Position numbers and translations under genes: made by a program. A model generated the notes under the pieces. That model was not told where the DNA came from. It made no database searches and was given only the letters and a program-made list of their open reading frames with translations. From NCBI GenBank assembly GCA_958009085.1, contig OY253686.1, forward strand, positions 1 to 64,000: a DNA stretch of 64,000 nt, read 5' to 3'. Each line of letters starts with the position of its first letter. The first letter of the stretch is position 1. Shown piece by piece: positions 23,301-50,800 of the stretch. The DNA is from Protoeuglena noctilucae (taxonomy: Eukaryota).

Positions 23301-23845
23301 CGGAGGTCGCCCGCAGGTGTGTCAGATACGTAGTCGGGGCATTTGTCATCCCCGACGGGGACCCACCTAGCACGGCGTTTGCTCTCAGTGGAAAGGACAC
23401 TGACCTGCACGAGGCCGCTCAGAGGGCCAGGGCAAACCACTACCAACCCTTACAGCGCGTGGTGCACTTGCCCGTTCCCCCGCTCTCCTACCTGCCCGCT
23501 GGGATATCTCGGCAGATTGGTGGCGGGCGCGTGCTACCTGATACAGCCGCACACAGCAACAAGCTGCGCCAGCTCATGGTCAAGATCGGCACAGATGGGC
23601 TTCCGATGTACTTGCGGTTGCGCGCATTCGTCTCAGCCACGGGAACGGAGACCGAAAGGGATGATGTCGAGGAAGAGAGTGCCAACTCGGACGAGGACAT
23701 TGATTTGGAGGCAGCGCTTGAAGAACAGGACGATGCTGGCATGGACGAAGAGTCGGGGTCTGGTGCCGAGGACATGGACGAGTGGCACGACACGGAGGCG
23801 GGGCCGAGCAATGGGGAGGCAACCTCATGGGAGAAGCCCAATTGA
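17307..23845 (+). CDS. Multi-exon protein: hydrophobic N-terminus, MATH-like domain, USP (C19) deubiquitinase, EsV-1-7-type repeats, GIY-YIG-like domain, acidic tail
   Basis: Phase-consistent exons: 18682-18836, 18968-19785, 19919-20034, 20230-20411, 20531-20826 (GC donor), 21159-21249, 21508-21566, 21707-23845. Probable upstream exons: 17307-17418, 17521-17726, 17824-17997, about 18111-18199 (this junction is ambiguous). USP motifs: NMGNTCY, MHDAPQFF, LQLLRF, VVHHYG...GHF, W-x3-DDDNV, CYLVFY. Confidence 0.72.
21797..22684 (+). repeat. Coding tandem repeat, 8 x 111 bp (37 aa), EsV-1-7-type Cys/His repeat
   Basis: Units start at 21797, 21908, 22019, 22130, 22241, 22352, 22463 and 22574. Consensus CGVDGCxxxPSFGxxGxPATRCARHKTDDMVxV; a divergent ninth unit starts at 22685. 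Confidence 0.93.
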
Positions 23846-26553: not shown

Positions 26554-29500
26554 TCACAGCACTTCGTAGTCATCCGGCACGACCTGGTTGCCGCGGGGCT
26601 GGGGAGCCCCCTCCCCGCCCCGGGTGCCGGGCCGCGACGCCGTGGCCGACCCAGCCCCCGACCCAGCGCCAGACGCAGCCCCTGACCCGGCCCCCGACCC
26701 TGCCCCGGCCTTTGCCCCAAGCTGGGCCTGCGCGCCCGAGGGCCCGGCGGCGGCGGCCGGTGGCGCGGCGGCCCTGGCGGACGCGTTGGCCGCGACGAGG
26801 AACCCCTCCTCCTCAAATTCGTCCGGGATGGGCGGCGGCACCCACTCGAAGAAGTCGGGCTCGCCCGGGTCGACCCATGCGCCCTCGTCGAGGAGCTGCT
26901 GGACCTGGACGGCGAGGGCCAGCGTGGCGGTGCGCTGGATGTCGAGGATGGCCCGTGCGCGCTGGGGGTCGAGCGTCTCGACGTAGCGGAGGATGAGGAG
27001 GTAGCGGTGGCAGTTGCGGGCCGTGGAGCCCCGCTGCTCCACCACGCGGTCGACCAGCTCGGGGACCTCCAGGTAGTTGTCCGTGAGCCACTCGTCGTAC
27101 ATCCACTTGCGCAGGGCGGCGGCGCGGCGCACGGCGTCCCGTGCCAGCACCACCGGCTCCACCACGGCCGCGATGGCCGAGGGGCGCGGGTCGCCCTCGT
27201 CCTGCACCCCGCGCGCGCCCAGGGCGTCGAGGAAGCCCAGGAGCCCCGCGGGCATCTCGGCGGCCATGCGCGCGAGGTGGGCGTACGGGTTGCCGCCCAG
27301 GGCGTCCACGTAGCGGCAGAGCTTGGTGTAGCGCCGCGCCTGGGCGACCGTCATGCCGGCGTCGCAGGCGGCCAGCTGCAGGACGGCGTTGACGGCGCGG
27401 GGCTCGTCCGGGTCGACGTCCTCGCTGGCCACCAGCCGCACCGAGTTGGCGTTCCACACGCGCCACACGGCCTCGCGGAAGTCCTTGCCGAGGGCGTTGG
27501 CGCGGCGCAGGTCCACCACGGGCACCAGCTGCTTGAGCAGGCCGGGGAGGGAGGGCGCCTCGCCGGGGTCGCGCCAGGCCAGGGACCGCCTGGCCAGCTC
27601 CACGCGGTGCGCCAGGGCCGAGACGGAGGCGTCGTTGTCGAGGAGCAGGTCGCGGCGCTCCTTGGCGGGCAGCGAGTCCAGGAAGCGCACCAGGGCCAGG
27701 TAGCGGTCGGCCACGGGCACCTCGAGGTCGAGGGCGCGGCAGACCTGGCGGTGCGTGGTGGCTGGGTCGAGGCAGAGCAGCTGGTAGCGCTGCTCCCGCA
27801 GGCGCACCCCCAGCTGGTAGGCCTCCCTCACGATGCGGAGGGCCTCGGCGCCGCGGTCGGCGACGAAGGAGGCCAGGCGCGAGGAGCCGTAGAGGCGCAC
27901 GGCGAAGTAGAGGGCGAGGAGGGCGTTCTCGGCGACGAAGGCGATGAAGAGGCGGGTCCAGACGGTGAGGGTGGTGGAGGTGAAGACGTATGTCTGGAGG
28001 GCGGAGGAGGAGAGGGCGAGGAAGAAGCACTGGTTGATGACGCCCACGACCATGAGGGCCTCGAACGCCACGCGGAAGACGCCGATGCCCGGCCAGCGCT
28101 CCGAGAGGGGACGCTGCGGGAGGGGAGGGGTGGGGGGGTGGTTGCGCTGTCGCTGTTGCTTTCGTGTCCACTCGCGCGGCGCTGTGGCCGTCACGCCCGC
28201 AGCTGGCCGCGGGTCCCTGGCCGCCCGCTGCTTACCTGCGTGACGCGGTTGAACTTCCACACGTCCATCTGCGCGACCGCGAACATGGAGAGGAGGAGCG
28301 CGACGGCGGACAGCGACCACGCGGACCCGAACGACATGAACACCGCCAGCTGCACGAGGACGCTGGAGAACTCCACCGAGTACTCGCTCGTCGTGGCGAG
28401 GATCTCCCCGCGAAGCTTCTCCTGCACCTCGTCCTCGAGGCCCGCGGCCAGGAGGTCGCCTGGGGGGGTGGGGGTGAGGGAGGTGGTTGAGGTGGGTCAG
28501 GCAAAAACAAGCACGCAGCTGTAAAGGCCCAAGCACTTTAACACGCCTACTTTCCGCACTCACCCGTCTCGGCGAGGTCCTCGTCGTTCCCCATGCCCAT
28601 GCCCATGCCCATGCCCATGCCGCCCCCCGCCTCGGCCAGCGCCCCCGGCCCCCCCTCCGCGTCCGCCCCCGCCTTGTCCGCCTCGGGGGTGCCCTTGGCG
28701 GCGATCCTCTCGACGTCCGCGCGCGCCACGCGCTTCCCCCGCGCGCCCAGCCAGGGCAGGGCGTACTCGATGAGCAGGGCCAGGACCTGCCCCACCACCA
28801 CGATGGCGGCCAGGGTGGCGGCCGTGAGGTCGAAGTCGCGCTTGTAGTAGGCGAAGTAGTAGAGGGACGCGGTGCTGTTGAGGTACTGGAACGTGACCAG
28901 CTTGATCGCCAGGGATGTGTCGTGCTCGTACACGGTGCCGAAGTTCTCGCGGTACGTGAGCCACACGGCCACGCGCTCCCACAGGGCGTTGAGGGTGAAG
29001 ATGGCGAGGGCGTTAGCGGCGGTGGTGGCGTAGAGGGCCGCGGTGCCGTAGTAGTTGCGGGTGCGGGTGAGGGGGTTGTTGAAGTTGTGGTGGAGCTTGG
29101 GGTCGTTGTCGATCAGGCCGATGACCACGACCACGATGGCCCAGGCGGAGAAGAGCGCGGCGGCGGCGGCGAGGAGCCAGGCGGCGACGGAGGCGCAGAT
29201 CCACTGCACGCGCGCCTTGAGCATGGCGGGGGTGGTGACGGGGACGTACTGCCAGGCGTTGTTGACGTACAGGCGCCTGACCACGGCCGTGGACGCCGGG
29301 TTGGGCGTCTTGGGGTACTCGTGGACGGTGTCGAGGCGCCAGCGGAAGCGCAGCTCGGCCTCCTTGGTCGCCCACCCGCGCACCAGCACGGCGGCCCAGA
29401 TCACGCAGACCAGGAAGAAGAAGTAGGCGATGGGGTGGTCGTAGGAGAGCGTGACGGACGTCTTGCCGGTGACCTCGGAGGGGGGGCGCAGGGGCACCCA

Positions 29501-33613: not shown

Positions 33614-36600
33614 CTACGCCTGACCACTCACGAGGGTGCCCGACCCCCTCAGCCGCTGCGAGGCCCGGGGCCCCGAGAGGCCCTCCACCAGCTTCAGCTG
33701 CTGCTGCTTGGCGCGCAGGTCGCGGATCTCGCGCCGCAGCTCCTTGATCTCCTTGATCAGCGCCACTGCGAGCGCGGGCACACGGGTGTTGGTGCTTTCT
33801 GCGCTGTCCCTGCCGCCACACTGCTGCGCCCGTCTGCACCCCCCCTCGCCCCTCACCGTTCTCCTGCATCGCCTGCATGTTCTCCGCGGTGCTCTTGGCC
33901 GCGTGCGCCGCCAGCTTCTGCTTCAGGTCCTCCACCGTCACCTCCAGGTACTCCTTCTGCCTTCGGTACTCGTCGTGGATGTCGGCGTCCATGCTCACCT
34001 CCTCGATCTGCGCCTTGCCCACGTGCCACTCGTACAGCTCCTGAGGGGAACGACGCACGCGACTGGCGTCGCATGCTCTGCTCATACCATGGCATTGCGA
34101 TGCGTCGTGTGCCATCTAGTCACGTACTACCCTCGCATGCGTCGGCCACATGCCCCACCCCCCCTTGTCTCTCCCCTCGCCTTGAGTTTCTCCTTGAGCC
34201 TCCTCGGGTCCTGGATCAGCTGCACCAGCTCGTGGAGGTCGTGCTGAATCTTGTGCACCCTTGTGCTGCGCCGCGACAGCCGCGCCCGCTGCTCCAGCAC
34301 CCCCGCCTGCAGCGACTGCACCCGCGCCCGCATGTCGGCGATGCTGGCCTCCAGCGCCGCGTTCTGCTTGTGGAAGCGCTCCAGGTCGCGGTCCATGTCC
34401 TTGATCTGGTCCTTCATTGTCTTGATCTGGGGGAGAGACACTGACACGGCAGCAGTGGGGGAGGGTAGCGTAGCTGGCTGAAGCTTGCTGAAGCAGGGTG
34501 CGCGACACCCTGCCACCCACCGCACCCCTCGCTGCATGCCATCCAGCACACCACTCCATCAGCACCCACCCCACTCGCATCCCATCACAAAAACCAGACA
34601 TCTCCACCCCATCCCATCCCATCCCACACATCAGACATCACGCCTCGCATCCATCCCACCCCACGCCCCCCCGGTCCCTCACCTCGACTTCCTTGGGCTC
34701 GATCTGCTTCTTCAGCTCCTTGATCTTGTAGTCGAGCACGAATTTGAACTTCTCCAGCTCCTGGTTCTCCTTCTTGAGCTCGTACGACTTCTTCTCTTTC
34801 TCCACGATCAGCTCGTCCTTCTCGTCGATCTCTGCCTTCAGTCCCTGGTTGTCCTGCACCGTGCTCTTGGCCGTCTCGCGGAGGTCCTCCACCTTGCGCT
34901 CCATCTGGGGGGAGGGGAGGAGGGGAGTGTGTATGTAGGGGAGAGCGGGGGGCGGGAGGGGGCAGGGGTCTGACTGGGCGGGGACAGAGCAGTGACAAGG
35001 AACATGGTTGGGGGTGCGAAGAGCGTGGCTGGTGTGGAGCAGGGAGTGTGGTTGGGATTGTCACCAGCATGGTTGGGTTCGCAAGCAGCGTGGTCAGTGA
35101 AGCGTGCCCCATGTGCATGCCACCCCCCCCCATCCCCCTCCCCACCTCCTTCTCCTCCTCGATCTTGTCCTGAATCTCCTTCTGCAGCTGGCTGAACTTC
35201 TTCCTCATGATGCCGTTCTCCCCCTTGAGGGACAGCGACACGTCCCTCTCGGCCGCCAGCAGCTTCTCGTTCCGCTCCTTCAGCTCCTCGATCTCCTTGT
35301 CGAAGTCCTGGTACATCTGCTCCTCGATCTCCGCGTACTCCCTCGCCGCCTCCTCCCGCTCCTGCTGCAGCTTCTCGATGTTCATGCGCTCCTCCTCCAG
35401 CTCGGCCTCGAACTTCTCCGTCAGCTCCTGGATCATGCGCTCGTTCTGCTCCAGCATGAGCGCCTGCTGCTCCCGCCACTGCTGCTCCAAGGCGTCCTTG
35501 TCCGCCTGCAGGCTCTGCCATCGCTCCACCTCCTCCATGATCTTCTGCTGGAAGCGGCTGTCGAGCGCGGCCACCCGGTGCTGGTGCTGCTCGTCCATGT
35601 GCTTTATGCGCTCCTCGTACACCATCTCCATCTCGTTCTTGTCCTGGAGCAGGCGCTCGAACGACTCCTTGTCCCGCTCCAGCTCCTCCATGTAACGCGC
35701 CGTCCGCTGCTTGACCTCGTCATTCATGTGGTTCTCCTTCAGGCGCTTCTCGTACTGGGGGGGGGGGACAGGGGAGACGTGTTGATACGATGAGATTGAG
35801 CGCTATGAGTGTGAGTGCAGTGTGCCACGCATGCACACAAGGCGCTGCGTGTGGGCGCTGCGAGTGTCAAGCAGGCACAGCCACATCCCACACAACCCCT
35901 CACCTCGAACCCCATCTGGTTGTCCTGCAGTCGCTGCTCCAGCTCCGCCGCCTGCCTCCGCCTCTCCTCCAAGTCGCTCTTCGTCACCAGCACCTCCTCG
36001 GCCCAGGGGAGCGCCTCACGGTCCGCCCCCACCGCCTGCACGTCGCGCACCTCGTGAACCGACAGGCACCCGTCCTCGCCCGCCGCGAACAGCACCGAGC
36101 TGTCCTTGCTGCAAACATGGGGACGAGGATGAGGTCGCTGCGACGGTCGCTTGTCTCAGTTACCAAGGTGCGACAGCGTGGCTGTCACAATGAGACACTC
36201 TCTGCATCTCTCTGCACCCAGCTCTTCTTGCCTCAGTCGCAGCCGTGTGATGCGCCCGTGGTGCGGCTTGGCCTCCGGCTGCTGGTGCTCCCCCGTCAGT
36301 GGGTACTTGTAGGCGCGGAGGAGACCCGACTCGGTCGAGGCGAAGAGCGACCGGGCGCCGTTGGGGAGAACCACTTGCGTCAACACCTGCGAGAGGGAAA
36401 TGTGACGGGCGGTTTGATATACTCGCCGGGCGCAGAGCAAGCCCGTGCCACGACCATCACTCGTAACATTGCGTCACACCCATGTCACATGCGATGCGCG
36501 TGGCATGTCTGCTCCCTCGCCTCTCCGCTCTTGACTTCCTTGGTGAAGGCCCCCCTCTCGTCCACTTCCTTGAGCAACCTGTCCGACCCAACGGCGTAAA

Positions 36601-39066
36601 AGGCGCGGAAGTCGGGACCCGCTGCCACGCAGTAGTACACGCATCCCTTCAGCACGCTCTCCACCTCCTTGTCGCGGCTGAAGTCGTCCATGTGCCACAT
36701 GTAGATGGCACCATCGCCACCCGTCGACAACAGCCTGGGTGGACGGTGGGGATGAGGTGCGGTTGGGGAGTGGAGATGCGAGGCGCGGTGGGGCGTGGAG
36801 ATGCGAGGCAGAGGTGCTTGTTTGCTCACTTCGAGTCGTCTTTGGACCACACGATGCTGTTGACCTTGCCGTTGTGCCCCCTCAGGTTGCTGACGTTCTC
36901 CCCCGTGTACGTGCTGTAGACGGCGATCGTGCTGCCATTGACCGCGGCCAGCAGGTGGCCCCCGTTGCTGAACTGGCACTCGCGGCAGGCCTTGATGTTG
37001 AACTCCTTGATCACCCGCAGGTCCTCCATCAGCTGCGGGAGGGGGAAGGGCGCATGCTGGGTCACGCAGTGCTATGTATGCCAGCACATCGGTGCCCCGC
37101 CACCACATGCACAAGCGCAGGCCCTGCCTGCGCCACCGCTCGCAGCTGCCCATGCATCGCAATGCCTCTAGTCACTAGCCACTCACCACTGTCATAAGTC
37201 GCAGCTTGTCGGCGAACCCGACCAGAAGCAGGTACCCCGACGGGTGAAGGGCGATGGAGTAGGCCTCCTCGACAAAGTCCTTGGCAAGCTCGCAGTAGCA
37301 GTCGACGTTGTTCCATATCTGCAAATGATTATACATGTAGTATTACAGCTAGGGCAGAGAGGGGCCCAGCTGTCAGCCCTGCGTGCGACGGCATGCAATG
37401 CAATTGCGGGGTGCAGTGGCAGCGTCCTGGTCTCACCCGCACGGACCCCCGGGAGGAGCAGGTGGCTGCGATGGGCTTGCGCGCGCACGTGTCGAGTCCG
37501 GTGATGGCGGTGGAGTGGAAGGGCGCCGACAGCAGCGTCACCGTGACCTCGTCCCCCCTCGCGAGGTTCGTGCCCTCCAGGGTTAGCAGGGACACCTGGT
37601 TGTCGTTGGTGGACACCACGATGGAATTCTGCGAATAGTACAAGCGAGGGGATATCGACAGCGAGGTGAGATGCAGGGTGGAGCACCGGCAGGCGACCGT
37701 ATGGTGGCGGTGGGTCAACGTGGTGCGTGTTGTGCCTGCCCGTGTCCTATCGCCACGCGTCTGCCCTCGCCTCGGATGGCGCCACGCTGATGCCCGTGAC
37801 GGTGCCGCCGCCCCGGTTGACCGACAGCTGCTTGACAATGCGGAAGGCGTCGCCGTCCTCGGCCCCGCGCTCCACCACCGCCACCATCCCGTCCGACCCG
37901 CCGACGACGAAGCCGCGCGAGAAGGGGCAGAGGGAGTTGATGCTCCCCGGCCCGTCGTGCCGTGCCAGCAGCTGCACCACCTCGCCCCCCTCCACCACCA
38001 GCAGCTCGCCCTGGTCCGTGCCAATCACCAGCGACGGCTCAGGGGCGACCCCCGCCTCGCCCTCGCCCTCCGCGGGCGTGTCCGCGGCCGGGGTGCCCGC
38101 GCCGGTGTCGCTGGGTCCCCTGACGTAGCACTGGCAGGTGAAGCCCTGCTGGGCGCGCCGGGCGGCCCCCACGTCCATCTCGGGCATGCCGGCCCCGTCC
38201 ACGCGGAAGCTCCGCAGCAGGCCGGGTCCCACGACGGAGAAGCGCCCCTGCTCGCCCTCCCGCACCCAGGGGGAGAACGCCACGCTGCGGACGGGCGCCT
38301 GGGGCGTGGACATGCGCGCCGTGTGCACCACCTTGCCCTTCTCCCACAGGAACAGCACCGCGTTCCACTCGGGGCCGCCGCCCTGGCACACGAGGTACTT
38401 CTCGTCGGCGCTGCGGGGGAGGGAGGGGGGGAGTTGTAGGGTAGATGTGGCGTGAGCGCACCGTGAGCGCGGCCCATCGCGGCAAGCATTGTTGTGACAT
38501 GCGCCGCTCGCCTGAAGGAAAGCGCCACGTATTCCTTGGATCCCACGTCCGACGCCAGCAGCATCTTGCGCCGCTTGAGCGTCGTGAGGTCGTAGATGCA
38601 CACCGTCCCACGCTCGCCGTACTCGGCCATCGCCAGGTACTTGCGGGACCGAGACATGGCCACGGCGGTGATGCCGCCGGACTCATGGCTACCTGCGCGA
38701 GGATCGGCGGAGCGTCGGGGGGCGCATGGCGCGCGCGGGGCGGCGTGGGCGCAAGAGGCGGGGCCGCACCCGGCAAAAACTGCTGGGCGCGCGTCTCCTT
38801 GTCGAGCACGACGATGTAGTGCCCCGCCGGATACAGAATTGTCGAGTCGTCGATGTGGAAGACATTCTGGGGAATGTCGCCGCGCACGCCGAAGACGTGG
38901 CTGCGGCGGAGGGGCGGGCGGCATGTGGCCGCGCGGACGGGGCTTGCGGCGTTCATCAGGCACCGCCGGGCCGTCCAGCACATGGCAGAAAGCGACGGAG
39001 ATATTCGCGACTGTCCGTGGCCGCGGAACCCGCCGCTCACCGGGGCGTCAGTGCCGCGACCGACAT
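33614..39066 (-). CDS. CFAP57: Cilia- and flagella-associated protein 57 (WD40 + coiled coil)
   Basis: N-terminus [32 protein letters not shown]40 repeats ([18 protein letters not shown]), coiled coil with [12 protein letters not shown] and [28 protein letters not shown], and [10 protein letters not shown]. Confidence 0.92.
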
Positions 39067-39798
39067 CTCTCCCCCCGCGCGGTCAGGGCCGGAGGCCCCG
39101 ACGCTGCGGCCTGCGCCTTATCCCCAAGCAAGGGGTCAAAGAACGCGCACCGGAAGCCCGCCCGCCGAGCTCGCAGCGTCCTACCCGCGGCGCGGAATCC
39201 CGTTCTGCGCGCCTGCGTTCAAGGAAGGCGCCCGGGCGCGTGGGTTTGGGCGTCGCGTCACCAGCTGGAACCACGGGGTCAAAGAACGCTTTAGAATGGT
39301 TCCACTCTCGTTGTCAAGGGACGAGGAGAGATCGCGCGGGAGCTGCCTGTTGGCACATGCGAGGCCCGCTGTGGCGCCCCGTGCGACCGAGGCGCCGAGC
39401 GTACCGGCAGAAGCTGCGACGCGGCGATGAGGCTTAGATTGCGCACCATGGTGCCACTCACCCACCTGCGGGCGCTCTGCAGCCAGCGGTGTTTGCAGAA
39501 AAGGCTCACAGCTCCACGGCAGGCTTGCTGTCAGGACCAACGGAGCCCCCTTTGGTAAGCACATGTCTGGCTTCAGTGCAGGGGACGTCGTGGACTTGTG
39601 CGGGAGCAGCCTGGCATCGACACGCTCTGACATGCTGGGCAGGCTCCCCGCGCCGGTGTTTGAGGGATTCGGACACCGCACCGCATCCTCATATCTGTGA
39701 TGCGACCATCTCCATCCCATTAGCCCCATCCAGCCCGTATCCGCTCCCCCATTCCCGAGGGGCGGTGCAGCTCTCCGCGCTCGCTCGCATCCGCGATC

Positions 39799-41390
39799 AT
39801 GATCCAGGTGTTTGTGAAACATCTGGACGGAAAAACTTTGCCATACTCGATCCACGCGAGCGCTCGGGTGTCGGAGCTCAAGGACCGCGTCTTTTCGCGA
39901 TGCGGGATCGATCCCGACGAGCAGCGGCTTCGCCAAGGCGGGGTACGTGACGAAGTTGCTGCAATTGTGTCGATGGAGGCATGGCGGGGCCTCCCGCGTG
40001 CTGGATAGTGACGCTCCATCTCCATGGTTGCTTCCATGCCACGGCCGCAGAAAGAGCTGGACGGCTCGTGGAGCAGCCGTCTGGGCCCGCCGAGTGAATA
40101 TCAGCCGTCCGATCTGGTGACCGAGATGCACTTCAAGCGCGTCCACCGCTCCAGCGACAGCGCTGCACGGATCACGGACGAGACGCTGACCCTGCCCGGC
40201 AAGGCAACGGGCCTCACCGTCAGCGACCTCAAGCGCTGGGCCAGCTGCGTTTGGCAGACACGAGTCGTGGAGGCCACGGTGTCCGGGTGCGCGCTGAAGC
40301 CCGACCGGCCCCTCTCCACCCTGTGCATGCTGGATGCGGATGTGGTGCTGGTGACGGAGGGGTCGTGGGCCCCTGCGGACGCCCCGGCGCGGCGTCCGAC
40401 GCTGGAGGAGCTGGGCATCGGCAACGACGCCACCGTGCACCTGCTGCTGCGCCTGCGGGGGGGCGCGGGGTGGACGCTTCCTCCGCCGAATGGACCGCAG
40501 CGTTTCGTGGATGTGACGGACTCGAGGCTCCTGAAGCAGGCGAGAGAGCGTGAGGGATGCTTGTCTTGCTGAGATGTGCCAGGGTGCTGCAGAGACTGCT
40601 TATCGCCGTCCGCTCGCAGCGGCATTTCTCGTCGACTGCCCCCGCGTGGCGTCAAGTGACGCGGGGTCTCAACCTGGAGGGCATTTGCACCAACACCGCC
40701 TGCGAGGCTCGGAACCAGCTCGTGATCTGCCCCGTGGGAATGGGCGAGACGGAGATCGTCAGCTACCATGCGACCTGCCCGATGTGCGAGGAGAAGATTG
40801 TTGCCACCACCTGCGGCTTCAGCAGCTGCACCTTCGCATTCGAGGGCCTCAAGCAGGACGGCGAGTCTTGCTTTGGCAGCAGGCAGCACAGGCACACGTT
40901 GTACATGTCCGCCGCGCTGCTTCACCCCTCGCTGCCGTCGTGGCTGCAGGCCAGGCATTCCACCAGGTGACGGTTGCGCCCCAGGAGACCCGAACGGACA
41001 TGTACTCCATCTACGACCACCGCACGGAGGGCGGCATGGGCACGTGGGCCATGCTGTCGTCGCGCACGTGGGCGACGCCCCCCCGCAAGTGCCCCATCTG
41101 CCTGGTGACCATGAAGGGGCGCAGGCTCATCGGCGTCACGTCGTGCGGGCACGAGTACCACTTGACGTGCATCAACAAGGTGACTGCGACCGTGAGGGGG
41201 GGTGCCGGGTACCTGTGTGCAGGTCTGGATGTGACGGTGGCTGGGATGCGGTTGCGGAGCGTGCAGCACATGACGTGGCCCAGTCCCTGTTGCCCATCGA
41301 TCCCCGCAGTGGCTGACCCGGGCGCACCGCTGCCCCTTGGACCACGAGCCATGCACGGCCGCGCAGCTGACCCGGAAGAGGGCACAGTGA
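39799..41390 (+). CDS. Ubiquitin-like (with about 109-aa insert)-LRLRGG + Cys-rich domain + RING-H2 protein, copy 1 (394 aa)
   Basis: Exons 39799-39942, 40051-40539, 40620-40860, 40950-41179 and 41310-41390 splice in phase, with two GC donors. MIQVFVKHLDGKT..DEQRL..GKELD and TLEELGI..TVHLLLRLRGG align to ubiquitin. RING: CPIC..CGHEYHLTC..W..CPLD. Confidence 0.85.
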
Positions 41391-41970
41391 TGGCGCACCA
41401 CGCAAACAGCCACACAGAGAGCGCATGCGCGGTGGCAGGGACACGACTGCCGGGGCGAAGGACAGCGACAGAGGGGCAGAGGTGGGCAGGGGCGGAGCGT
41501 GCTGTGAGCGTGGGCACAGCTGTGAGGGGGCCGAGCGTGGCGCCTGCGTCTAGTCCGAGCCGCGGATTGAATGACTGCTCTCAGATGCGGCGCTGCAGCG
41601 AGTTTAAGCGGCCGGGCAAGAGGGCCAGGCAATGACACTCGTCGATACGCTCGGCAAGCTCGCGGCGCCGGCATTAGCGCTGAAGCCAACCACTGATGCC
41701 TGATATCCGTCATCGGTTGTAAGAAGGGTCAGCTTTCTCATGCGCGGAGGCTGGGCCGGATCGAGGCGGGCTGCACCAGCCAGACGCGTGACAACGTCCA
41801 TGCGCGGGCCGAGGCAGAGGCTTTCGAGGGATCCAACCACCCTGCCTCATTCTCACATCCGCGATGCGACCATCGCAACCTGCATTGTCCACATCCAGCC
41901 CGTATCCCCTCCCCCACTCCCGAGGGACGGTGCAGCTCTCCGCGCTCGCGCGCATCCACGGGCCGCGATC

Positions 41971-43567
41971 ATGATCCAGGTGTTTGTGAAACATCTGGAC
42001 GGAAAAACTTTGCCATACTCGATCCACGCGAGCGCTCGGGTGTCGGAGCTCAAGGACCGCGTCTTTTCGCGATGCGGGATCGATCCCGACGAGCAGCGGC
42101 TTCAGCGAAGCGGGGTAAGAGTTGCGTACATGCAGATGGAGGCATTGCGGGGTGGGCTGCGGGCTGGATAGCATCGCTCAATCCCCAGGGTCGCGTCCGT
42201 GCCGCGAGCGCAGAAGGAGCTGGATAACTCTTGGAGCAGCCGCCTGGGTCCGCCAAGTGAATATCAGCCGTCCGATCTGGTGGTTGAGGTGCTTGTTACG
42301 CGCGTACATCGTTCCAGCGGCAGCATCGTGCGGGTCACGAAGGAGACGCTTACCATGCCGGGCGAGGCTACGGGCCTTACCGCCGCTGACCTCCGCCGCT
42401 GGGCCAGCTGCGTTTGGCAGACGCGAGTCGTGGAGGCCACGGTGTCCGGGTGCGCGCTGAAGCCCGACCGGCCCCTCTCCACCCTGCGCATGCTGGATGC
42501 GGGTGTGGTGCTGGTGACGGAGGGGTCGTGGGCCCCTGCGGACGCCCCGGCGCGGCGTCCGACGCTGGAGGAGCTGGGCATCGGCAACGACGCCACCGTG
42601 CACCTGCTGCTGCGCCTGCGGGGGGGCGCGGGGTGGACGCTTCCTCCGCCGAATGGACCGCAGCGTTTCGTGGATGTGACGGACTCGAGGCTCCTGAAGC
42701 AGGCGAGAGAGCGTGAGAGATACTCATGTTTCAAAGATGCAGCAGGGTGCTCCGCAGACGGCTTGCCTCCTTCCCATCGCAGCAAAAGTTTTAATCTTCT
42801 GCCCCCGCCTGGCGTGTTGTTACGCCTGGTCTCAACCTGGAGGGCATTTGCAAAAACGATGAGTGTGAGGCATGGGACGAGCGCGTCATCTGCCCCGTGG
42901 GAATGGGCGAGACGGAGATCGTCAGCTATCACGCCCGCTGCCCCATGTGCCACGAGACGATCGAGGCCACCTCGTGTGGCTTCAGCAGCTGCACCTTCGC
43001 ATTCGAGGGCCTCAAGCAGAGCGGCAAGTTGCATAAACGTACCAGTAGCAGGAATGGAAACCTTCACGTCACATTCCTGTACCCCCTCATTGTGTCCTGT
43101 CGTGTCTTTGCTCCACGCAGGTAACGCCTTCCGCCAGGTGACCGTGGCGCCCAAGGAGACGCGTGAAGATCACTGCTCCATCTACGACCACAGCAGCAGA
43201 GGTGGCATGGGCACGTGGGCGATGCTGTCGTCGCGCACGTGGGCCACCCGCTCCCGCGAGTGCCCCATCTGCCTGGTGGCCATGGCCGGCACTGTCGCCG
43301 TCACGCCGTGCGGGCACAAGTATCACGACAACTGCATCCGCAAGGTGATCATAGTATTGCTATCAAAGGTGCCGGCATGCATGGGCGCAGGTCGGGGTCA
43401 GGGTCGGGGTGACGGAGGCTGCCGAGATGCAGAGCATATGAACACAGCATGTTGCTCAATCATGTGTCGCATGTCGCTCCCCGCAGTGGCTGGCGCGGGC
43501 GGCCCGCTGCCCTCTGGACAATGAGCCGTGCACCGTGGCTCAGCTGACCCGGAAGATCGCCCGGTGA
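41971..43567 (+). pseudogene. Copy 2 of the Ubl-Cys-rich-RING gene, with an in-frame TAA in exon 3
   Basis: Same five-exon layout (41971-42114, 42214-42702, 42783-43023, 43121-43344, 43487-43567). TAA at 42792-42794 stands where copy 1 has TCG (Ser). Confidence 0.72.
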
Positions 43568-44822
43568 CGGCGCATTCAGCAGACAACACACACAGTGGGC
43601 GCATGTGAGAGGTGGCAGAGACAGGACTGAAGAGGGCTGAGAGATGGGCAGGGGCGGAGCGTGCTGTGAGCGTGGGCACAGCTGTGAGGTGGCTGAGCGT
43701 GCTGTGAGCGTGGGCGCAGATATGTGGGCCAAGCGCGGCATGTTCTCTCCCCCATCCGAGCCGCGGATTGAACGATGGGTGCTTTCAGAAGCGACACTGC
43801 GCCGCCGCAGAGTGCAAGGGAGCCGGGCAGGCACAGCGGCCGAGGGGCGCAAAGGGGCATGCCCACACACGCGCATCGCAGGAACGCAGCATGGCAGAAG
43901 GTGCATGGCACTCAGCAGGGGGTCAGCGCGGGCTGTGTCATGTCCACGCGCGGCCCTGCGCGCTGCGAAGCGGCTATGCCACACTCTGGCACTCATGCGG
44001 GTGGCTGCGCATGCGTGCAAAGGAGAGTGGCCGACACGCTGTGCCTGCGTCATGCTCATCTCGTCGACACCCTTGCCGACATGTTCTTGGACAGTCGACC
44101 CCTGTCAGTTGTCATGATTCCTCCCTCACATGTCTGGGTCAGTGAAGGGCAGCAGGGGCGCGCCGGGTGCGGGTGCCGGGCGTGGACCGCGGGGGGAGGG
44201 CCCCGTCTGTGCATCTGCAGGCGGACGAATGGGGATGGATGGTAAATGAATGTGCTGTGAAAGGGGCGAGTGCGCTGCGAGAGTGCACGGCATGGAACGG
44301 TCATGTCACCGCGTGCACTACATAAATGGTAATGCACACACCATGCGCAACCTTCCCATCCCATCAACCTTCCCATCCCATCGCATCGCACGCCTGTCAT
44401 GTCACATGAGCATCTGCCCATGCTATCAACAACCTTACAATCCATGCCCCCCTCACGCACCGTGGCTGGGTGGCGCTGGGTAGGGGCCCCCCTGGGATCG
44501 GAAGAGGTGGCTGCCGGGCATGTTCTGCAGGATGCCCTTAGTAGCATCAGCCACAGAGCGGGACAGGGGGGGGCGGCCGTTGCCGGACGCGGGGAGACTG
44601 CGATTGGGGGGTGGGGAGTGAAGATGAGATGAATGGGGTGTTGGAATGGGGAATGCGGCATGCGTAGATGCTGGTACCGGACTAGTACCAGAGCAGTGGG
44701 TGAGGGGAGTGCGGTGCGAGTGAGCGACAAGTGAGCAATGCATGATCAATAAGCTAGCAGCAAGTCAGTCATAGCAGCGAGTGAACGACTCATGAGCAAC
44801 ACGCAACAGCGTCACTGTTCCC

Positions 44823-47800
44823 TCACGTGGCGTATGGCGCGACGGGGGGTGGCAGGTCGCTTGCATGCACGAAGTCGCCGTGGGCCAGGGGGTCCAGGCC
44901 TGAGGGGTGGGAGCTGCCATTCGTCCACAGATGCACCTGGAGGGGTGAATGAGAGGGGTGGAAGTGTCAATGGATGTGTTGCTGTTGGGGAGATGTGCGC
45001 AGGGAAGCCAGCGGGCATGCGTGGCTGTGACATGAGTGGGGAGAGAAGTGGGATGGGCTGACAAGCGAAAACAGTATTTCAGTCTCTGCCAACACAGTCC
45101 CTCTCACCCTCACCCCCACCCCCACCACTCCCACCCCCCCTCACCGTCTGCATCCACCACTACCATCAAGCAATCCCCCCCCACCACTACTCCCCCTCTC
45201 TCTCACCCTCTCCACCAGTACCCATCTCAGCCCCCCCCCCCCCCCCCCCCCCCCGATCCCACCCCCCTCACCCTCTGCATCCACCGTGCCGCAAAGTGCC
45301 CATCTGCAGACCCGTTCCTCGCACCCCCGTCCGGCCCCGCACCCCCGTCGTTGTGCAGCAGAGAGAAATACGTCGAGTGCAGCGCCGACCGGCGGCGATA
45401 GGCCAGGGCTGCCAGGTACACCGCCGCACCGATGGCCCCCACCAGCGCCAGAACCCACGCAGCCGTGCGCAGGGGGTGGTGCTTCTGAGGAACACACGGG
45501 GTTGGGGTAGAGTGATCATGTCGGAGAATGGATATCGTGTCGTGATGTTACAGAGAACATACACGAGACGGATGGGTGACTGTGACGGTAACAGCGACGA
45601 TCGGCGTTTGCTTGCATGACCAGCGCACGGTGCATCTGCCATCCTGGTCTCGCCACTCCACTACCACAGCACAGTCCCCAACATGCATCTGCACTCTTGT
45701 TAACACCGCTCCCATGCCCCGCTCGCCTTCGCGGAGGGTCGGCCCCCACCGCGCCCGCCCCCACCCCCACGCCCACTCCCTCCCCCGTTGCCGCCCTTGC
45801 CGCCGCCGTCCCATGGCAGCGGATCGGATCCCGCGTCCGGATCGATGTTGTCGTCGTTGCCTTGCGTGCAGTAGCTGAGCTCGCGGCCCGTGCAGACCCA
45901 GCCGGGCTCAATGCGGCACTGCGATGGGTGAGTGGGTGAGGGTGAGGACATGAGGGTGAGGAGAGGTGAGGTGCGGAGATGAGGGTGATGGGAGGGGTGG
46001 TGGAGAGGTGAGACGAGGTGACAAGACACGGATGCGCTAGCTGCAATGCTGCACCCACCGCCACCCTCACCACCCCCTCATCTCTCACCGCACAGCTGCA
46101 CCCATCTCAACTCATCCCCACCCCGCCCCCCCTCACCGTGCTGCTGCACCCGTCCCCGTCCCTGTCGTTCCCGTCGTCGCACTCCTCCAGCCCCTGCACG
46201 TACCCATCCCCACAGAAGGACAGCCAGGGCACCACAGTCCAGCGTGGCTCCCCGCTCATGATGAGGTGATGGCCGTGGCCCGTCTCGTCGCGAACGCGGT
46301 AACCCTCGCCCTCGTCGAACTTCCTGGGAGGGGGGGGGGGGGGGGGGGGAGTGGGGGTGGTGTGAGGGGAGGGGGGGCAGGGGAGGAGCGGGCGGGCGTG
46401 GGGGGTAGCAAGCACGCAAGTGAGGGTGGCAATCCATTCATTAGCCTGTCTCCTTCCATTGTCTAATTGTCCATCCATCAATTAATCCATCCATCATCCA
46501 TTCATAATGTCCATCTCTCACCAGTACGCCACCAGGTCTCTGCTCCTGGGGCTGACGCCCGGATCGTCGAAGTCGCCCGACCCCGCCTGCGCCTCGTCCG
46601 CACGCATGTTCTCGAGAATCTCGTCCTGTGAAGTGAGAGATAAAGCATATAAGATAAAGATTGCATGTTGTTGAGATGGGTGTGTGATAAAGAGTGCATC
46701 TCCCACGTCCTCTCCTCACCTGCGTCAGTGCCCTCCTCCACAGCCGCATCTCTCACATCCACTCACATTCACTCTCTCATCACCCAGTCACCCATCTCAC
46801 CTGTGTCAGTGCCCTCCTCCACAGCCGCATCTCCCACATCCACTCACAGTTACTCCCATCACTCTCATCACCCATCCATCGAACTCCCCTCACCTGCGTC
46901 AGTGCCCTCCTCCACAGCCGCATCTCCTCCATGAGACCGTAGAAGTCCTGGCTGCCATGCTCCACCTCACCCTTGCCTGTGATTGGGGGAAATGAGAGAT
47001 GGGCAGTGAGTGACAATCAAGCAGACCATCGCCCTGCATGCACACCCACACCCACGCTGCTACCCACACCCACCCCCACACTGCTACCCACCCCCAGACC
47101 CCCCCACTCTCCCACACTCTCACCTGACCCCCTGGCCCCGGTCCGCGAGTCAAAGCACCCCCCCCTGCAGTCCTGCTCCCTCCCCACCACCAGCGTGCCC
47201 CCGCTGGGGATGACCTTGCCCTTGCCACGCGTCACGCGCCACATCAGACGGCCGTTGTCGTACAGGCTCGTCTCGCCTGGGGGTGAGTTGGGATGCAGGG
47301 TGGGTGTTGGTAATGAAGAGGTAAGCGTGGTGTGGGAGAGGAGTGGAGAGGGATGGCAGTGGGGTGGCTGGGGAGTGTCACAAGTGTTCATGCGAGAGAG
47401 AGCGAGACAGGGTGATTTATAGTCGCTCCTCACATACACCCTACCTACATGCATGCATGCATGCAACGCGAGAGAGTGTGTCTATCTCATTCCACCCCTC
47501 ACCCGTGTCGCTCCTCCATGTGACGGCGATGTGGTGGAACTGACCATCCGTGGACCCGAAGCCAGCCAGATGATCGGTGACTGAGAGAGCACACGGGAGA
47601 GGGGTGTTTTGTGTGAGTGAGGGCAGCGTGTGGGAGATGGGGAGCGCATGGGAGGGTGCACATGCGCATGTGGGGCGCTGCGATGCACAACAGCGCATGT
47701 GTGATGCACACGCCTCGTTTATAAACATGACCCAGTCATTGGAAGCAACTCCTCTGCTCATCTCTCACCCGTTCCCTCGTCTTCCATCACAGAGATGCCT

Positions 47801-50800
47801 GGGGGGGGAGGGGAGGAGAGGGGGCGGGTGGGTGAGGGTGAGGGTGATGAGCGCAGAGAGATGGGGTAAATGGAGATGGAAAGAGATGGCGAGGTTGACG
47901 GTGATGGTCAGTCCTCCCTAAGTCACTCACTCACTCACTCACTCAGTCACTCAACCAATCACTCACTCACCCCAGGCGTTGTAGTTGAACAGGTCGAAGG
48001 TGCTGTCAATCCATCAACCACGCACTCCCTCACTCCCTCACTCCCTCACTCTCACTCCATCACTCAACCACTCTATCAACCAATCGCTCACCCCAGTCGT
48101 TGTAGTTGAACAGGTCGAAGGTGTTGTCGTCCACGCCGTACGCGTCCCCCACTGCGTAACTGAAGGGCGTGCCCTGGTTGCAGCTGTCGGGGCTCATCAT
48201 CCAGAACTCCAGCGTCAGAGCACGGTCGGGGAAGCCGCCGAACTCCGACACCATCAGCACGTTGTCGGAGCTGAGGCGCAGAGCGTGGCCGGCCGAGCCC
48301 GGCTGGGGCCCGGGCAGCGGGAGGCCGTCGGTGGCGGTGAGGGGGGCGTAGCTGTAGTGCCATAAGGGGGAGAGGGAGCCTGCGAGTGGGGAGAGAAGGG
48401 CTTGTTGTGTGTTTCCACGCCCTCCCTCACGCCCTCACCCATGTACACGTGGTTGCCGTGCACTCGCCCATACGCTATGCGCATCCACACCACCCCTCAC
48501 CCATCCCCATTTGCTTGTATAGGCACTCACCCATGTACATGTGGTTGCGGTGCGCGCTCCTGTCCATGAGGAACTTGGCTCCGTCCTGCGCGTCCCCCGT
48601 GAACTCGATGGCCACCGCGATGCTCGACTGCTGGTCGCGGCTGAGGTCGTCCCAGGTGCATAACATGACTGATTGGATGTCGGATGATGAGAGGGCGCCC
48701 TCCCAGATGCGCAGCTGGGGGGGGGGGGGTGTTGAGGAGAGAGGGGAGAGGAAGTGAGAGGGTGGATCCGTCCATATCATCTCCATTACCCCCACTGTCA
48801 TCTCTCCCCTCACCTGCGCCAGATCCCCATCGAGCGCCGTCCGCGGCTGGAAGCACCCCCCCATGCACTCCTGGTTCTGACCCAGCACCAGGCTCCCCTC
48901 CGACAGCCGCGCCTTGCCAGCTGACAGCGTGGGGGTGACGCCCCCGTCCTTGGGATTGACGTACTCCAGGCGACCGGCGCGGCTGATCCAGAAGGGAGTC
49001 ATTGCTTTGCCGTCCAGGTACAGGGACACCGTGCCCTTGTCGTACGACCAGGTGACTGGAGGGGGATGGGTGGGGGTGGTCAGTGAGTGAGGGGGGGGTG
49101 GGAGTGGCGCATGAGAGCTGCACGGGGGGTGCGGGAGCTGCGAGAGGGCATGCGGGATGTGAGACGGGGTGCACGGAGGGAGTGAGAGAGACAGCACACC
49201 TCTGCACTCCCCTCTCCAGCAACGCAGCCATCGACACTACCCATATATCCGCATCCATCCCCCCTGACATGCACATGCACTCACCCGCGATGTGGTGCCA
49301 GGTCGCGTCCGTCCACTGGGTGTAGAAGTCGACCCAGTTGTCCTGTTTCTGGGGGTTGCTCTCCCGGTTGGAGTTGACGTGCACCCGCACCGAGCCCACC
49401 GTGCTGATGCTGTCGTCCTCCTCGTCAATGTCGCTGCCCACGTACTGAATGGGAGAGAGGGAGGGGGTGAATGATGTGTGATGGGTTGTGAGCATGGTTG
49501 GGTAATCAGGCATTCGGCCCTCTCTCACACACCAACCCCCCGTCATCTCTCCTCCCTCACCTCATCCAGGTACCTCTCCCTCACAGCATAGCACCACCCC
49601 TCTCTTATCAATTTCTCACCTCATCCAGGTACCTCTCGATGAGGATGGCGTCGTCGGCAAAGTAGCTGTCCGGCATCCACCCCCTGCCAGAGTCGCTGCC
49701 ATCCGATGGCACCACCGATGCGTACGACAGCACCACGTCCTTGGTGTCGAAGAGGGGGAACGACGCACTGGCGGACGTGGCCTGGGATGAGAGAGGAAGG
49801 GGTGTGAGGGGGTTGAGGGGTGAGAGTGGTGGGAGCGACAGCGGTGCGGGGCCTGAGATGTTGCACTGTGCAGCGGTAGCATTATGGCATGCATGAGCAG
49901 TAGCGACATGGGACGAGCACCACTCTAGCCAGTCGCTGCCCCATCACCGCTTCAGCACAGCAACCATCACACACAAACACTATTCCCTTACCTTGGGCAG
50001 GCTTGCCCAGAATTCGACGGTGATGTCCCGCGTGGGCATGCCCTGCACTCGGCTGTTGATGGCGTAGTTGTTGTCGAAGGAGCCCGTGCTGGTGTAGAAG
50101 TCGGTGGCCAGCTGCACCCCCGTGGTCAGCACGGGGCGCGCGGTGAGGACCAGGTCGTGCCCGTTGCCTGGGGGGGATGTGGAGATGCAGAGATGAGAAG
50201 ATGAGATGGGCAAAGACGAGAGTGGAGAGCAGGCGACCACTGGGCTGTCGCATATATCAGACACACACTGCCACATCTCTACGACACCCAGACCCACACC
50301 CTCAGCATTCACATGCCTGTCTCATGTCTCACCCGATGAGTCCGTGGCCACTGCCGTCTCCTGGAACACCCCCGACGTCTCATCCGGGTCATCGAAGCTC
50401 CAGTAGGCGACCAGGTCGGGGTCAGGGCCGAGCTTCAAACGCATGTCGCGGAGAATCTGAGAGGAAAGAGAGTGACAGGGTGAGACGAGGTGACATATGA
50501 CCATCTCAGCAGCTGTGGCTGGGGAGGTGTCGCAGCGCACACCCCAGCGCACACCGCCTCTCACCCCCACACAACACGCGCACCACTCCCCACCCCACCA
50601 CCTCCTCTCCCCCCTCTCACATCACCCTTACCCTCTCTGCCCCACAGTCACCCTAACCATGTCTCCCCATCTCACCTCCGCCTGCGTGCGTGCACGTCTC
50701 CACAGCCGCACTTCGTCCATGTAACCACGGAACGCCTGGTCCCTCTCCGTGCATCCCCCGTAGCAGTCCTGCTCAGCGCCGAGGATGAAGGCGCCGTTGG

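Follow-up and report, generated by a model that had tools for sequence, protein, structure and literature searches.

Several described proteins combine, on one chain, a ubiquitin-like domain (Ubl) with a RING-type ligase or with a second Ubl. UHRF1/NP95, Parkin and HOIL-1L have an N-terminal Ubl and a RING-type ligase on the same polypeptide; their Ubls do not end in the diglycine (GG) motif and are not released, the integral Ubls of ligases being usually devoid of GG. ISG15 and FAT10 each join two modules in a single modifier-like chain that has GG at its C-terminus. ISG15, whose terminal sequence is LRLRGG, is synthesized as a precursor, and the precursors of ubiquitin, NEDD8, ISG15 and FUBI that extend beyond GG are clipped after it. 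Here we analyze a gene of Protoeuglena noctilucae located at 39799–41390 on the plus strand of a stretch of 64,000 nucleotides (positions 1 to 64,000 of contig OY253686.1, hereafter the window). Its five exons encode a protein of 394 residues composed of a Ubl that terminates in LRLRGG, a Cys-rich beta domain (hereafter the mid domain) and a RING-H2 finger, and the Ubl is interrupted by an insert of 110 residues. Neither the mid domain nor the insert exists in UHRF1/NP95, Parkin or HOIL-1L. ISG15 and FAT10 differ in having their Ubls in tandem and in not being fused to a ligase, whereas the second module of the present protein is only a candidate Ubl. Taken as a whole, the locus is probably best explained as a RING E3 ligase of a widespread family that carries a lineage-specific, translated insert in the Ubl loop at residues 52–54.

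Fusions with a comparable order have been listed in algae. As far as the main text of the corresponding study goes, ubiquitin-zinc RING finger fusions occur in Bigelowiella natans and Guillardia theta and no function is assigned to them (PMC6332867). Like the present gene, they place N-terminal ubiquitin, as one or two units, in frame with a RING finger protein; they differ in that the units are complete ubiquitin monomers, and the word "insert" is absent from that main text (PMC6332867). This comparison covers the ubiquitin units and the RING finger.

The Ubl is split by a translated insert

Exon 1 (39799–39942, 48 residues) opens with an ATG at 39799 and encodes the N-terminal two thirds of the outer Ubl (MIQVFVK...DEQRLRQGG; translation MIQVFVKHLDGKT...DEQRLRQGG). 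It matched positions 1–41 of the Pfam ubiquitin profile PF00240 with an E-value of 1.3e-07 (31.8 bits for a cut-off of 25.4). After intron 1, exon 2 (40051–40539, 163 residues) reads KELDG, then 110 residues, then PTLEELGIGNDATVHLLLRLRGG, the last of these matching PF00240 positions 53–72 (exon 2 residues 117–136, E = 0.089). A second profile, built from 68 Ubls of the relatives described below, gave the same split, exon 1 scoring 32.4 bits and residues 116–138 of exon 2 scoring 18.9 bits. When the insert was removed in silico, the two halves merged into one contiguous match of 64.9 bits to this family profile, within the range of the family itself (20–124 bits). The contiguous domain of about 72 residues that defines PF00240 is thus present here as two halves lying 110 residues apart, and the C-terminal LRLRGG tail is retained (40447–40464).

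Both profiles confirm the interruption around ubiquitin residues 52–54 that had been read from the letters alone in an earlier note on this DNA; the insert, estimated there at about 109 residues, has 110 with the borders set here (40066–40395). The translation of exon 2 likewise bears out the exact LRLRGG ending at 40464. This motif is followed by 15 residues and then by FVDV, which opens the mid domain (FVDVTDSRLLKQ), so that the sequence requirement of processed Ubl precursors, a GG with a C-terminal extension, is present in the protein.

Long spurious open reading frames (ORFs) are found on both strands of this DNA, which has a G+C content (GC) of 66–68%, and an open frame by itself therefore means little here. 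The insert is nevertheless translated coding sequence with a constraint like that of the other exons, because its third-position GC (GC3), its ratio of non-synonymous to synonymous substitution (dN/dS), its lack of indels and the lack of a matching splice pair all point the same way. Its GC by codon position is 0.65/0.57/0.86. The GC3 of 0.86 falls within the range of the exons (0.73–0.96) and above that of the four introns (0.52–0.74); intron 1, read in the same manner (0.67/0.58/0.58), has no third-position excess, and the four introns behave likewise. Comparison with a tandem second copy of the gene (copy 2, described below) gave 10, 9 and 19 differences at the three codon positions of the insert and a dN/dS of 0.31, calculated on its diverged first 60 codons, as compared to 0.31 for exon 3, 0.52 for exon 4 and 0.24 for exon 5. 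The insert is free of indels between the two copies, while the introns carry them. Finally, none of the 101 in-frame GT/GC..AG pairs in exon 2 removes the insert at its borders. Nine of them remove at least 240 nucleotides, with starts at 40117 or later, and their AG ends lie in purine-rich surroundings that differ from the four GCAG acceptors of the gene. These data agree with the earlier proposal that the insert is translated and not spliced out.

A short direct repeat, GG(C/G)TCGTGG, is present at the start of the insert (40063–40071) and 33 nucleotides before its end (40360–40368). Both occurrences encode G-S-W and could be an insertion trace or a product of chance.

The Ubl, mid domain and RING fusion is the layout of a large family

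A phmmer search with the 81 residues of exon 3 returned 1187 proteins at E ≤0.001, including 208 at E ≤1e-10. The best match is the locus's own variant (94% identity) and the next one has 51% identity. In a set of 36 relatives picked from the best 150, with a preference for longer proteins, PF00240 was detected in 29, together with a RING family in 19, and one protein has a U-box instead. The mid domain was located by motif in 118 of the 150 proteins examined, and 86 of these 118 have a GG at most 45 residues upstream of it. A typical relative reads LRLRGGG, 2–10 residues, then F[VA]DVSN. The named members, all annotated as hypothetical proteins, come from Tribonema, Aphanomyces, Saprolegnia, Phytophthora, Achlya, Acaulospora, Gigaspora and a chytrid, and hence from a xanthophyte, oomycetes, glomeromycete and mucoromycete fungi and a chytrid; in the atlas clusters, the commonest recorded taxa are rotifers, euglenozoans and sponges. 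KAG5177401.1 from Tribonema minus and KAH9194275.1 from Aphanomyces euteiches, for instance, have the same domain order, the GG, a short linker and FxDV. The relatives differ from the present gene by a contiguous Ubl, by a Cys as last RING ligand and, often, by an extra N-terminal Ubl-like domain. By its sequence, the gene thus belongs to a widespread and uncharacterized eukaryotic family with the layout Ubl-RGG(G)-linker-FxDVSN domain-RING. The earlier note had taken the locus for a self-contained modifier system. The anatomy on which this was founded (split Ubl, LRLRGG, Cys-rich domain and RING) is right, but the fusion is the standard layout of a large family.

The mid domain of the family is predicted to be all-beta, with four invariant Cys residues (FxDVSN...AP.WR...GLN.EG.C.N..C...CP.C). 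The Cys-rich string noticed earlier, FVDV..APAWR..GLNLEGIC.N..C..CPMC..TCGFSSC, is indeed read in exons 2 and 3, and all the invariant family columns are present in it. The Pfam scan of the gene and of its relatives gave no match for this domain, and its profile searched against solved structures found, as best hit, a RING finger at a non-significant E-value of 0.93. Our literature searches turned up no paper on it. In one rotifer cluster, its fold was found (TM score 0.68 over 112 residues) in proteins annotated as NAD(P)(+)-arginine ADP-ribosyltransferase. Since the domain is joined there to an ADP-ribosyltransferase, it may be a portable binding module.

The RING-H2 finger, whose CPLD end had also been pointed out, has the ligands CPIC-x14-CGH-x2-H-x2-C-x10-CPLD, the eighth being Asp and not Cys. 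Exon 4 alone, which contains the first six ligands, scored 27.5 bits with zf-RING_11 (cut-off 27) and 25.8 bits with zf-RING_2; the ligand pattern and the zf-RING_11 score above cut-off together establish the finger.

The AlphaFold model of one relative, P0017, has a mean predicted local distance difference test score (pLDDT) of 89.5 and consists of the Ubl, a linker, the all-beta mid domain (about 97) and the RING. The stretch after GG drops below 50 at residues 92–95, consistent with an exposed linker. Among the structural neighbours of the P0017 Ubl are ISG15, FAT10, the Ubls of UHRF1/NP95 and Parkin, and an engineered fusion of ubiquitin to the TRIM21 RING.

In many relatives (P0020, P0025, P0008, P0014 and others), the region preceding the canonical Ubl, residues 1 to about 100, appears as a divergent Ubl-like domain. 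Its alignment to the Ubl alignment by hhalign gave a 65% probability and an E-value of 5.9e-05. This domain was delimited in 28 of 149 representatives and is an optional trait of the family. Given its Ubl-like character, the usual family layout would be a tandem Ubl-like pair before GG. No match to it was obtained at E ≤1 in the six frames of 36000–46000, and the present gene starts at the Met of its own Ubl.

The insert and the last RING ligand are specific to this lineage

The Ubl is contiguous and near full-length in 94 of the 149 representatives. Searching for homologues with the Cys-rich domain, as proposed earlier, did yield many relatives with a contiguous Ubl, but none with the insert. 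Word-based searches with the insert returned only ORFs of the locus itself, P0006 (441 residues, 90% identity; 3633 candidates) and P0157 (291 candidates). Three metagenome loci matching the insert were taken as spurious, all three giving the same match over residues 92–148 at 39% identity, and one of them, L001, owing its match to a lone peptide pattern (CMLDADVV) within an unrelated protein.

The last RING ligand was compared in 69 relatives with a recognizable RING. It is Cys in 56 and Asp in none; in the other 13 the pattern stopped at an earlier Cys, and these were judged by reading. CPLD is found in both copies of the gene. Because the relatives end in CP.C, the Asp apparently arose within the lineage of this gene. 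An Asp at this place has parallels: it is also the last zinc ligand of the RBX1 RING, and the RING of TRAF6 has the same C-P-x-D end (HKCPVDNE, versus HRCPLDHE here; E = 2, not significant). Neither RBX1 nor TRAF6 resembles the gene beyond the end of the finger.

Within the set of proteins compared, two traits are therefore lineage-specific, namely the insertion into the Ubl and the use of Asp as final RING ligand, and the fusion of Ubl, Cys-rich domain and RING is not private to this gene. Our literature searches brought up no description of a split or interrupted Ubl among the papers listed, as judged by titles and abstracts. In the sections consulted of a survey of the beta-grasp fold, the inserts described are strands, coils and small elements, and no whole domain is reported inside a ubiquitin-like protein (PMC1949818).

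The fold of the insert

According to the earlier note, the insert itself reads like a Ubl, so that two beta-grasp folds, one inserted into the other, were to be expected. The searches with ubiquitin profiles did not support this. The profile of the 68 family Ubls gave −0.8 bits on the insert, within the range of 200 shuffled sequences. Aligned to the Ubl alignment with hhalign, the insert reached a probability of 0.5–0.75% over 14–15 columns, and 18 of 120 shuffles scored as high. A Pfam search of the insert at E-values up to 10 retrieved no Ubl family, and a profile search of the PDB sequences found nothing relevant, the only hit being mL42 at E = 0.58. Smith-Waterman comparison with the outer Ubl of the same protein gave a z of 0.47 (293 of 1000 shuffles were as good), and comparison with the 68 family Ubls a median z of 0.46, with a z above 3 for one Ubl of the 68. 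Structure prediction was no more favourable: the AlphaFold model of the insert, based on an alignment of the two copies, is unreliable (pLDDT 50.2), and a structure search with it gave a best Z of 4.6 and no beta-grasp among the matches. Ubiquitin profiles thus score the insert like shuffled sequence, and neither profiles nor structure searches find a beta-grasp in it.

Other observations point towards a Ubl. A language-model search placed the insert next to Ubl clusters, with a score of 0.89; scores below 0.9 are leads only, and one third of shuffled proteins also yield ten concordant hits. The order of elements in the AlphaFold model is strand 17–27, strand 35–44, helix 52–63 and strand 66–77, with nothing beyond, and this strand-strand-helix-strand order, predicted by a model of pLDDT 50.2, is compatible with the first half of a beta-grasp. 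Finally, hhalign of the insert against the 28 relatives' N-terminal domain gave a weak match (score 17.6 over 45 columns) that was reached by none of 120 shuffles (mean 9.07, standard deviation 1.69, maximum 16.8). On this basis, the insert may be a very divergent Ubl-like module that stands in for the absent N-terminal domain.

Gene structure, second copy and RNA-library contigs

The locus is a genuine gene of a marine alga of high GC; its four introns comprise two of the GT-AG type and two of the GC-AG type. Intron 1 (39943–40050, 108 nucleotides, GT-AG) begins with the donor GTACGT at 39943, contains an in-frame TAG, and differs from its counterpart in copy 2 by a 9-nucleotide indel and many substitutions. 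Exon 2 runs from KELDG through the insert to the Ubl terminus with LRLRGG and, past the linker, into the beginning of the mid domain. Intron 2 (40540–40619, 80 nucleotides) is of the GC-AG type (CAG|GCGAGA...TCGCAG); its borders were deduced from the spacing of relatives (FVDV, 14 residues, AP.WR) and from the profile fit of competing models. Exon 3 (40620–40860) encodes the zinc-binding part of the mid domain (APAWR, GLNLEGICTNTAC, CPMC, TCGFSSC). It is followed by intron 3 (40861–40949, 89 nucleotides), again GC-AG (G|GCGAGT; GCAAGT in copy 2), and by exon 4 (40950–41179), which completes the mid domain with its C-terminal beta part and supplies the first six RING ligands (from 41090). Intron 4 (41180–41309, 130 nucleotides, GT-AG, AAG|GTGACT...CCGCAG) has indels relative to copy 2. 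Exon 5 (41310–41390) encodes the last ligand pair in CPLD, with the Asp codon at 41340–41342 and the stop codon TGA at 41388–41390.

With the two GC donors, the model has 394 residues, no internal stop and a single mid-domain profile match of 143.7 bits (positions 2–125 of 131). A GT donor at 40550 for intron 2 was rejected, as it lowered this match to 107.8 bits or led to a frame shift or to loss of the start of the domain. Such GC-AG introns are common among high-GC marine algae: in the portions of the reports consulted, their share is 14–17% for two pelagophytes (bioRxiv 10.1101/2024.10.30.620910), and a haptophyte has them at 56% of 241 mapped junctions (PMC4028052). At two of the four introns of the present gene, they would defeat gene finders that expect GT, which may explain why no annotated protein was found for it.

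Copy 2 (41971–43567, plus strand) repeats the whole gene in tandem, insert included, and lies about 2.17 kb downstream of copy 1. The similarity between the copies is a patchwork: 39793–39931 and 40234–40554 are identical or nearly so, with three differences in the second segment, and the rest is about 77–81% identical. This pattern looks like gene conversion. The exon 1 copies are otherwise identical, and the residues just before the insert show 3.5 non-synonymous versus 0.5 synonymous differences. A public ORF of 134 residues, P0007 (window 40566–40970), equals copy 1, read-through of the intron included, except for a tract, HARCPMCHETIEATSC, that matches copy 2; this suggests that P0007 is an allele of another strain with a conversion tract.

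Four sequencing runs were compared with the locus, namely X1 (an RNA library), X2, X8 and X11. Contigs of the locus came from X1 and X2, and none from X8 or X11. The DNA contigs of X2, which is possibly the source of the assembly, cover 39902–40554 with zero differences. The X1 contigs cover 39791–39952, 40292–40542 and 41237–41510.

Other features of the window

Outside of one low-GC island, the GC of the window is 0.60–0.74. The island (18000–21500) has a GC of 0.43–0.50, apart from one 500-nucleotide bin at 0.60, compared to about 0.66 elsewhere. It adjoins an ORF of 756 residues (21575–23845, plus strand) with eight EsV-1-7 cysteine-rich motifs (PF19114, E = 1.8e-87). As this motif is named for a brown-alga virus, the DNA of the island and ORF may be foreign or viral. 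On the minus strand, fragments of a family-B DNA polymerase with a polymerase-epsilon zinc finger (550–8182), of a cytochrome P450 (11934–12932) and of an anoctamin-like channel (26554–28563) represent ordinary, intron-containing nuclear genes. Imperfect direct repeats of 78 nucleotides, rich in CACTCA-like motifs, follow downstream of the gene pair and are present in three copies at 46697–46948 and in two copies at 47930–48128.

Discussion

In the mechanism that we propose, the protein would act as a RING E3 ligase whose RING recruits a charged E2, and the beta/zinc mid domain would serve as a partner-binding module. The LRLRGG, situated in an exposed linker, would be cut by a ubiquitin-type protease, and a cut at GG would part a piece of 186 residues, the Ubl plus the insert, from the ligase. 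The insert would be a small alpha/beta module hung from the Ubl on two Pro/Ser-rich linkers, and may replace the N-terminal Ubl-like domain present in many relatives. That the RGG tail is retained family-wide in an exposed linker argues for clipping of the Ubl, and we consider cleavage after LRLRGG somewhat more probable than its absence. That the fused RING would then conjugate the freed piece is speculation, and far less probable than the processing itself.

A Ubl that stays uncut is the most serious alternative, although on balance we do not expect it. It would then be an integral regulatory or docking domain, as in Parkin, UHRF1 and HOIL-1L, or a built-in acceptor ubiquitin, as in the engineered Ub-TRIM21 RING, and the insert would modify this role. 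Ligases that combine an integral Ubl with a RING or RBR are well known, several of them are among the structural neighbours listed above, and a sizeable insertion, like the disappearance of the hydrophobic patch, could be easier to tolerate in a docking domain. Integral Ubls, however, usually lose GG, whereas RGG(G) is conserved in 86 of 118 relatives here, with a linker predicted at low confidence. The complete scenario of the earlier note, in which a nested beta-grasp pair is cut after LRLRGG, activated and conjugated as a double Ubl with the fused RING as cognate ligase, seems to us unlikely. It draws on the exact LRLRGG and the RGG(G) kept before the linker, on the Ubl clusters among the language-model neighbours of the insert, on the weak match to the divergent N-terminal domain that no shuffle equalled, and on the predicted order of strands and helix. 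Against it stand the failure of every ubiquitin profile to match the insert significantly, an unreliable model without beta-grasp match, a language-model score that counts as a lead only, and an Arg at the position that we take to be equivalent to Ile44; moreover, we know of no tested precedent for a RING that conjugates the Ubl with which it was born. [quoted passage not shown] If true, this would be the first natural Ubl within a Ubl, and the nested pair of 186 residues a new kind of modifier.

Two further explanations deny the insert a function or a place in the protein. The gene might be a decaying, lineage-specific duplicate, little expressed or not at all, with the insert as tolerated junk in a non-functional Ubl. 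Copy 2, with its in-frame TAA, means that at least one copy is broken in the assembly; the RNA-library contigs show no splice joints, no orthologue lies between 51% and 94% identity, and non-synonymous differences outnumber synonymous ones just before the insert. Yet dN/dS is 0.24–0.52 in all diverged parts including the insert, GC3 is coding-like, copy 1 is intact with all the invariant mid-domain residues and RING ligands, and P0007, a variant of copy 1 from a public collection, has this frame open as well. Decay is accordingly a very improbable account. The idea that the insert, or most of it, is an in-frame open intron whose splicing leaves a normal Ubl of 76 residues can invoke the full-length match restored by removing the insert (64.9 bits) and the family member P0036, an example of a read-through intron in the Ubl. 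It is met by the lack of any GT/GC..AG pair fitting the insert borders and by GC3, dN/dS and absence of indels that are exon-like and unlike the four introns; RNA-library contigs (40292–40456), which may be DNA, are also unbroken over the 3' border at 40395/40396. We hold this possibility to be close to nil.

The explanation that we prefer, a family RING E3 with a lineage-specific translated insert, has its own difficulties besides the failed searches for a fold in the insert. The insert was present in no relative, either in the word-based protein searches or in the metagenome scan, and a split Ubl was seen in one of the 149 representatives, where the extra 45 residues resemble a read-through intron. 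Both structure searches with the full P0017 model were filled by ubiquitin matches, over model range 9–91 in the first and among the best 50 of at least 500 matches in the second, and gave no assignment for the mid domain. Another peculiarity of this gene lies in the residues just before the insert: at the position equivalent to the Ile44 patch, presumably that of ubiquitin Ile44-Phe45, copy 1 has RQ and copy 2 has QR, so that the outer Ubl may not bind the usual partners. In exon 3 of copy 2, the in-frame TAA (42792–42794) replaces a position that is Ser in the family. Lastly, the X1 contigs contain no splice joints, and include 10 nucleotides of intron 1 as well as sequence of intron 4; they may be DNA or unspliced RNA and, because they include intron sequence, show neither splicing nor its absence.

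The family to which this gene belongs spans oomycetes, xanthophytes, early-diverging fungi and possibly rotifers and others, and keeps a tail of the type used for ubiquitin cleavage and activation. It may represent an unstudied route by which a ligase and a Ubl are obtained from one precursor. In the lineage of P. noctilucae, the ubiquitin fold can apparently carry a translated insertion of 110 residues, under purifying selection, in the loop at residues 52–54. If the outer fold still forms, the gene would be a natural test of the tolerance of Ubls to insertion, and if the insert is itself a Ubl, it would provide a new topology for two-Ubl modifiers.

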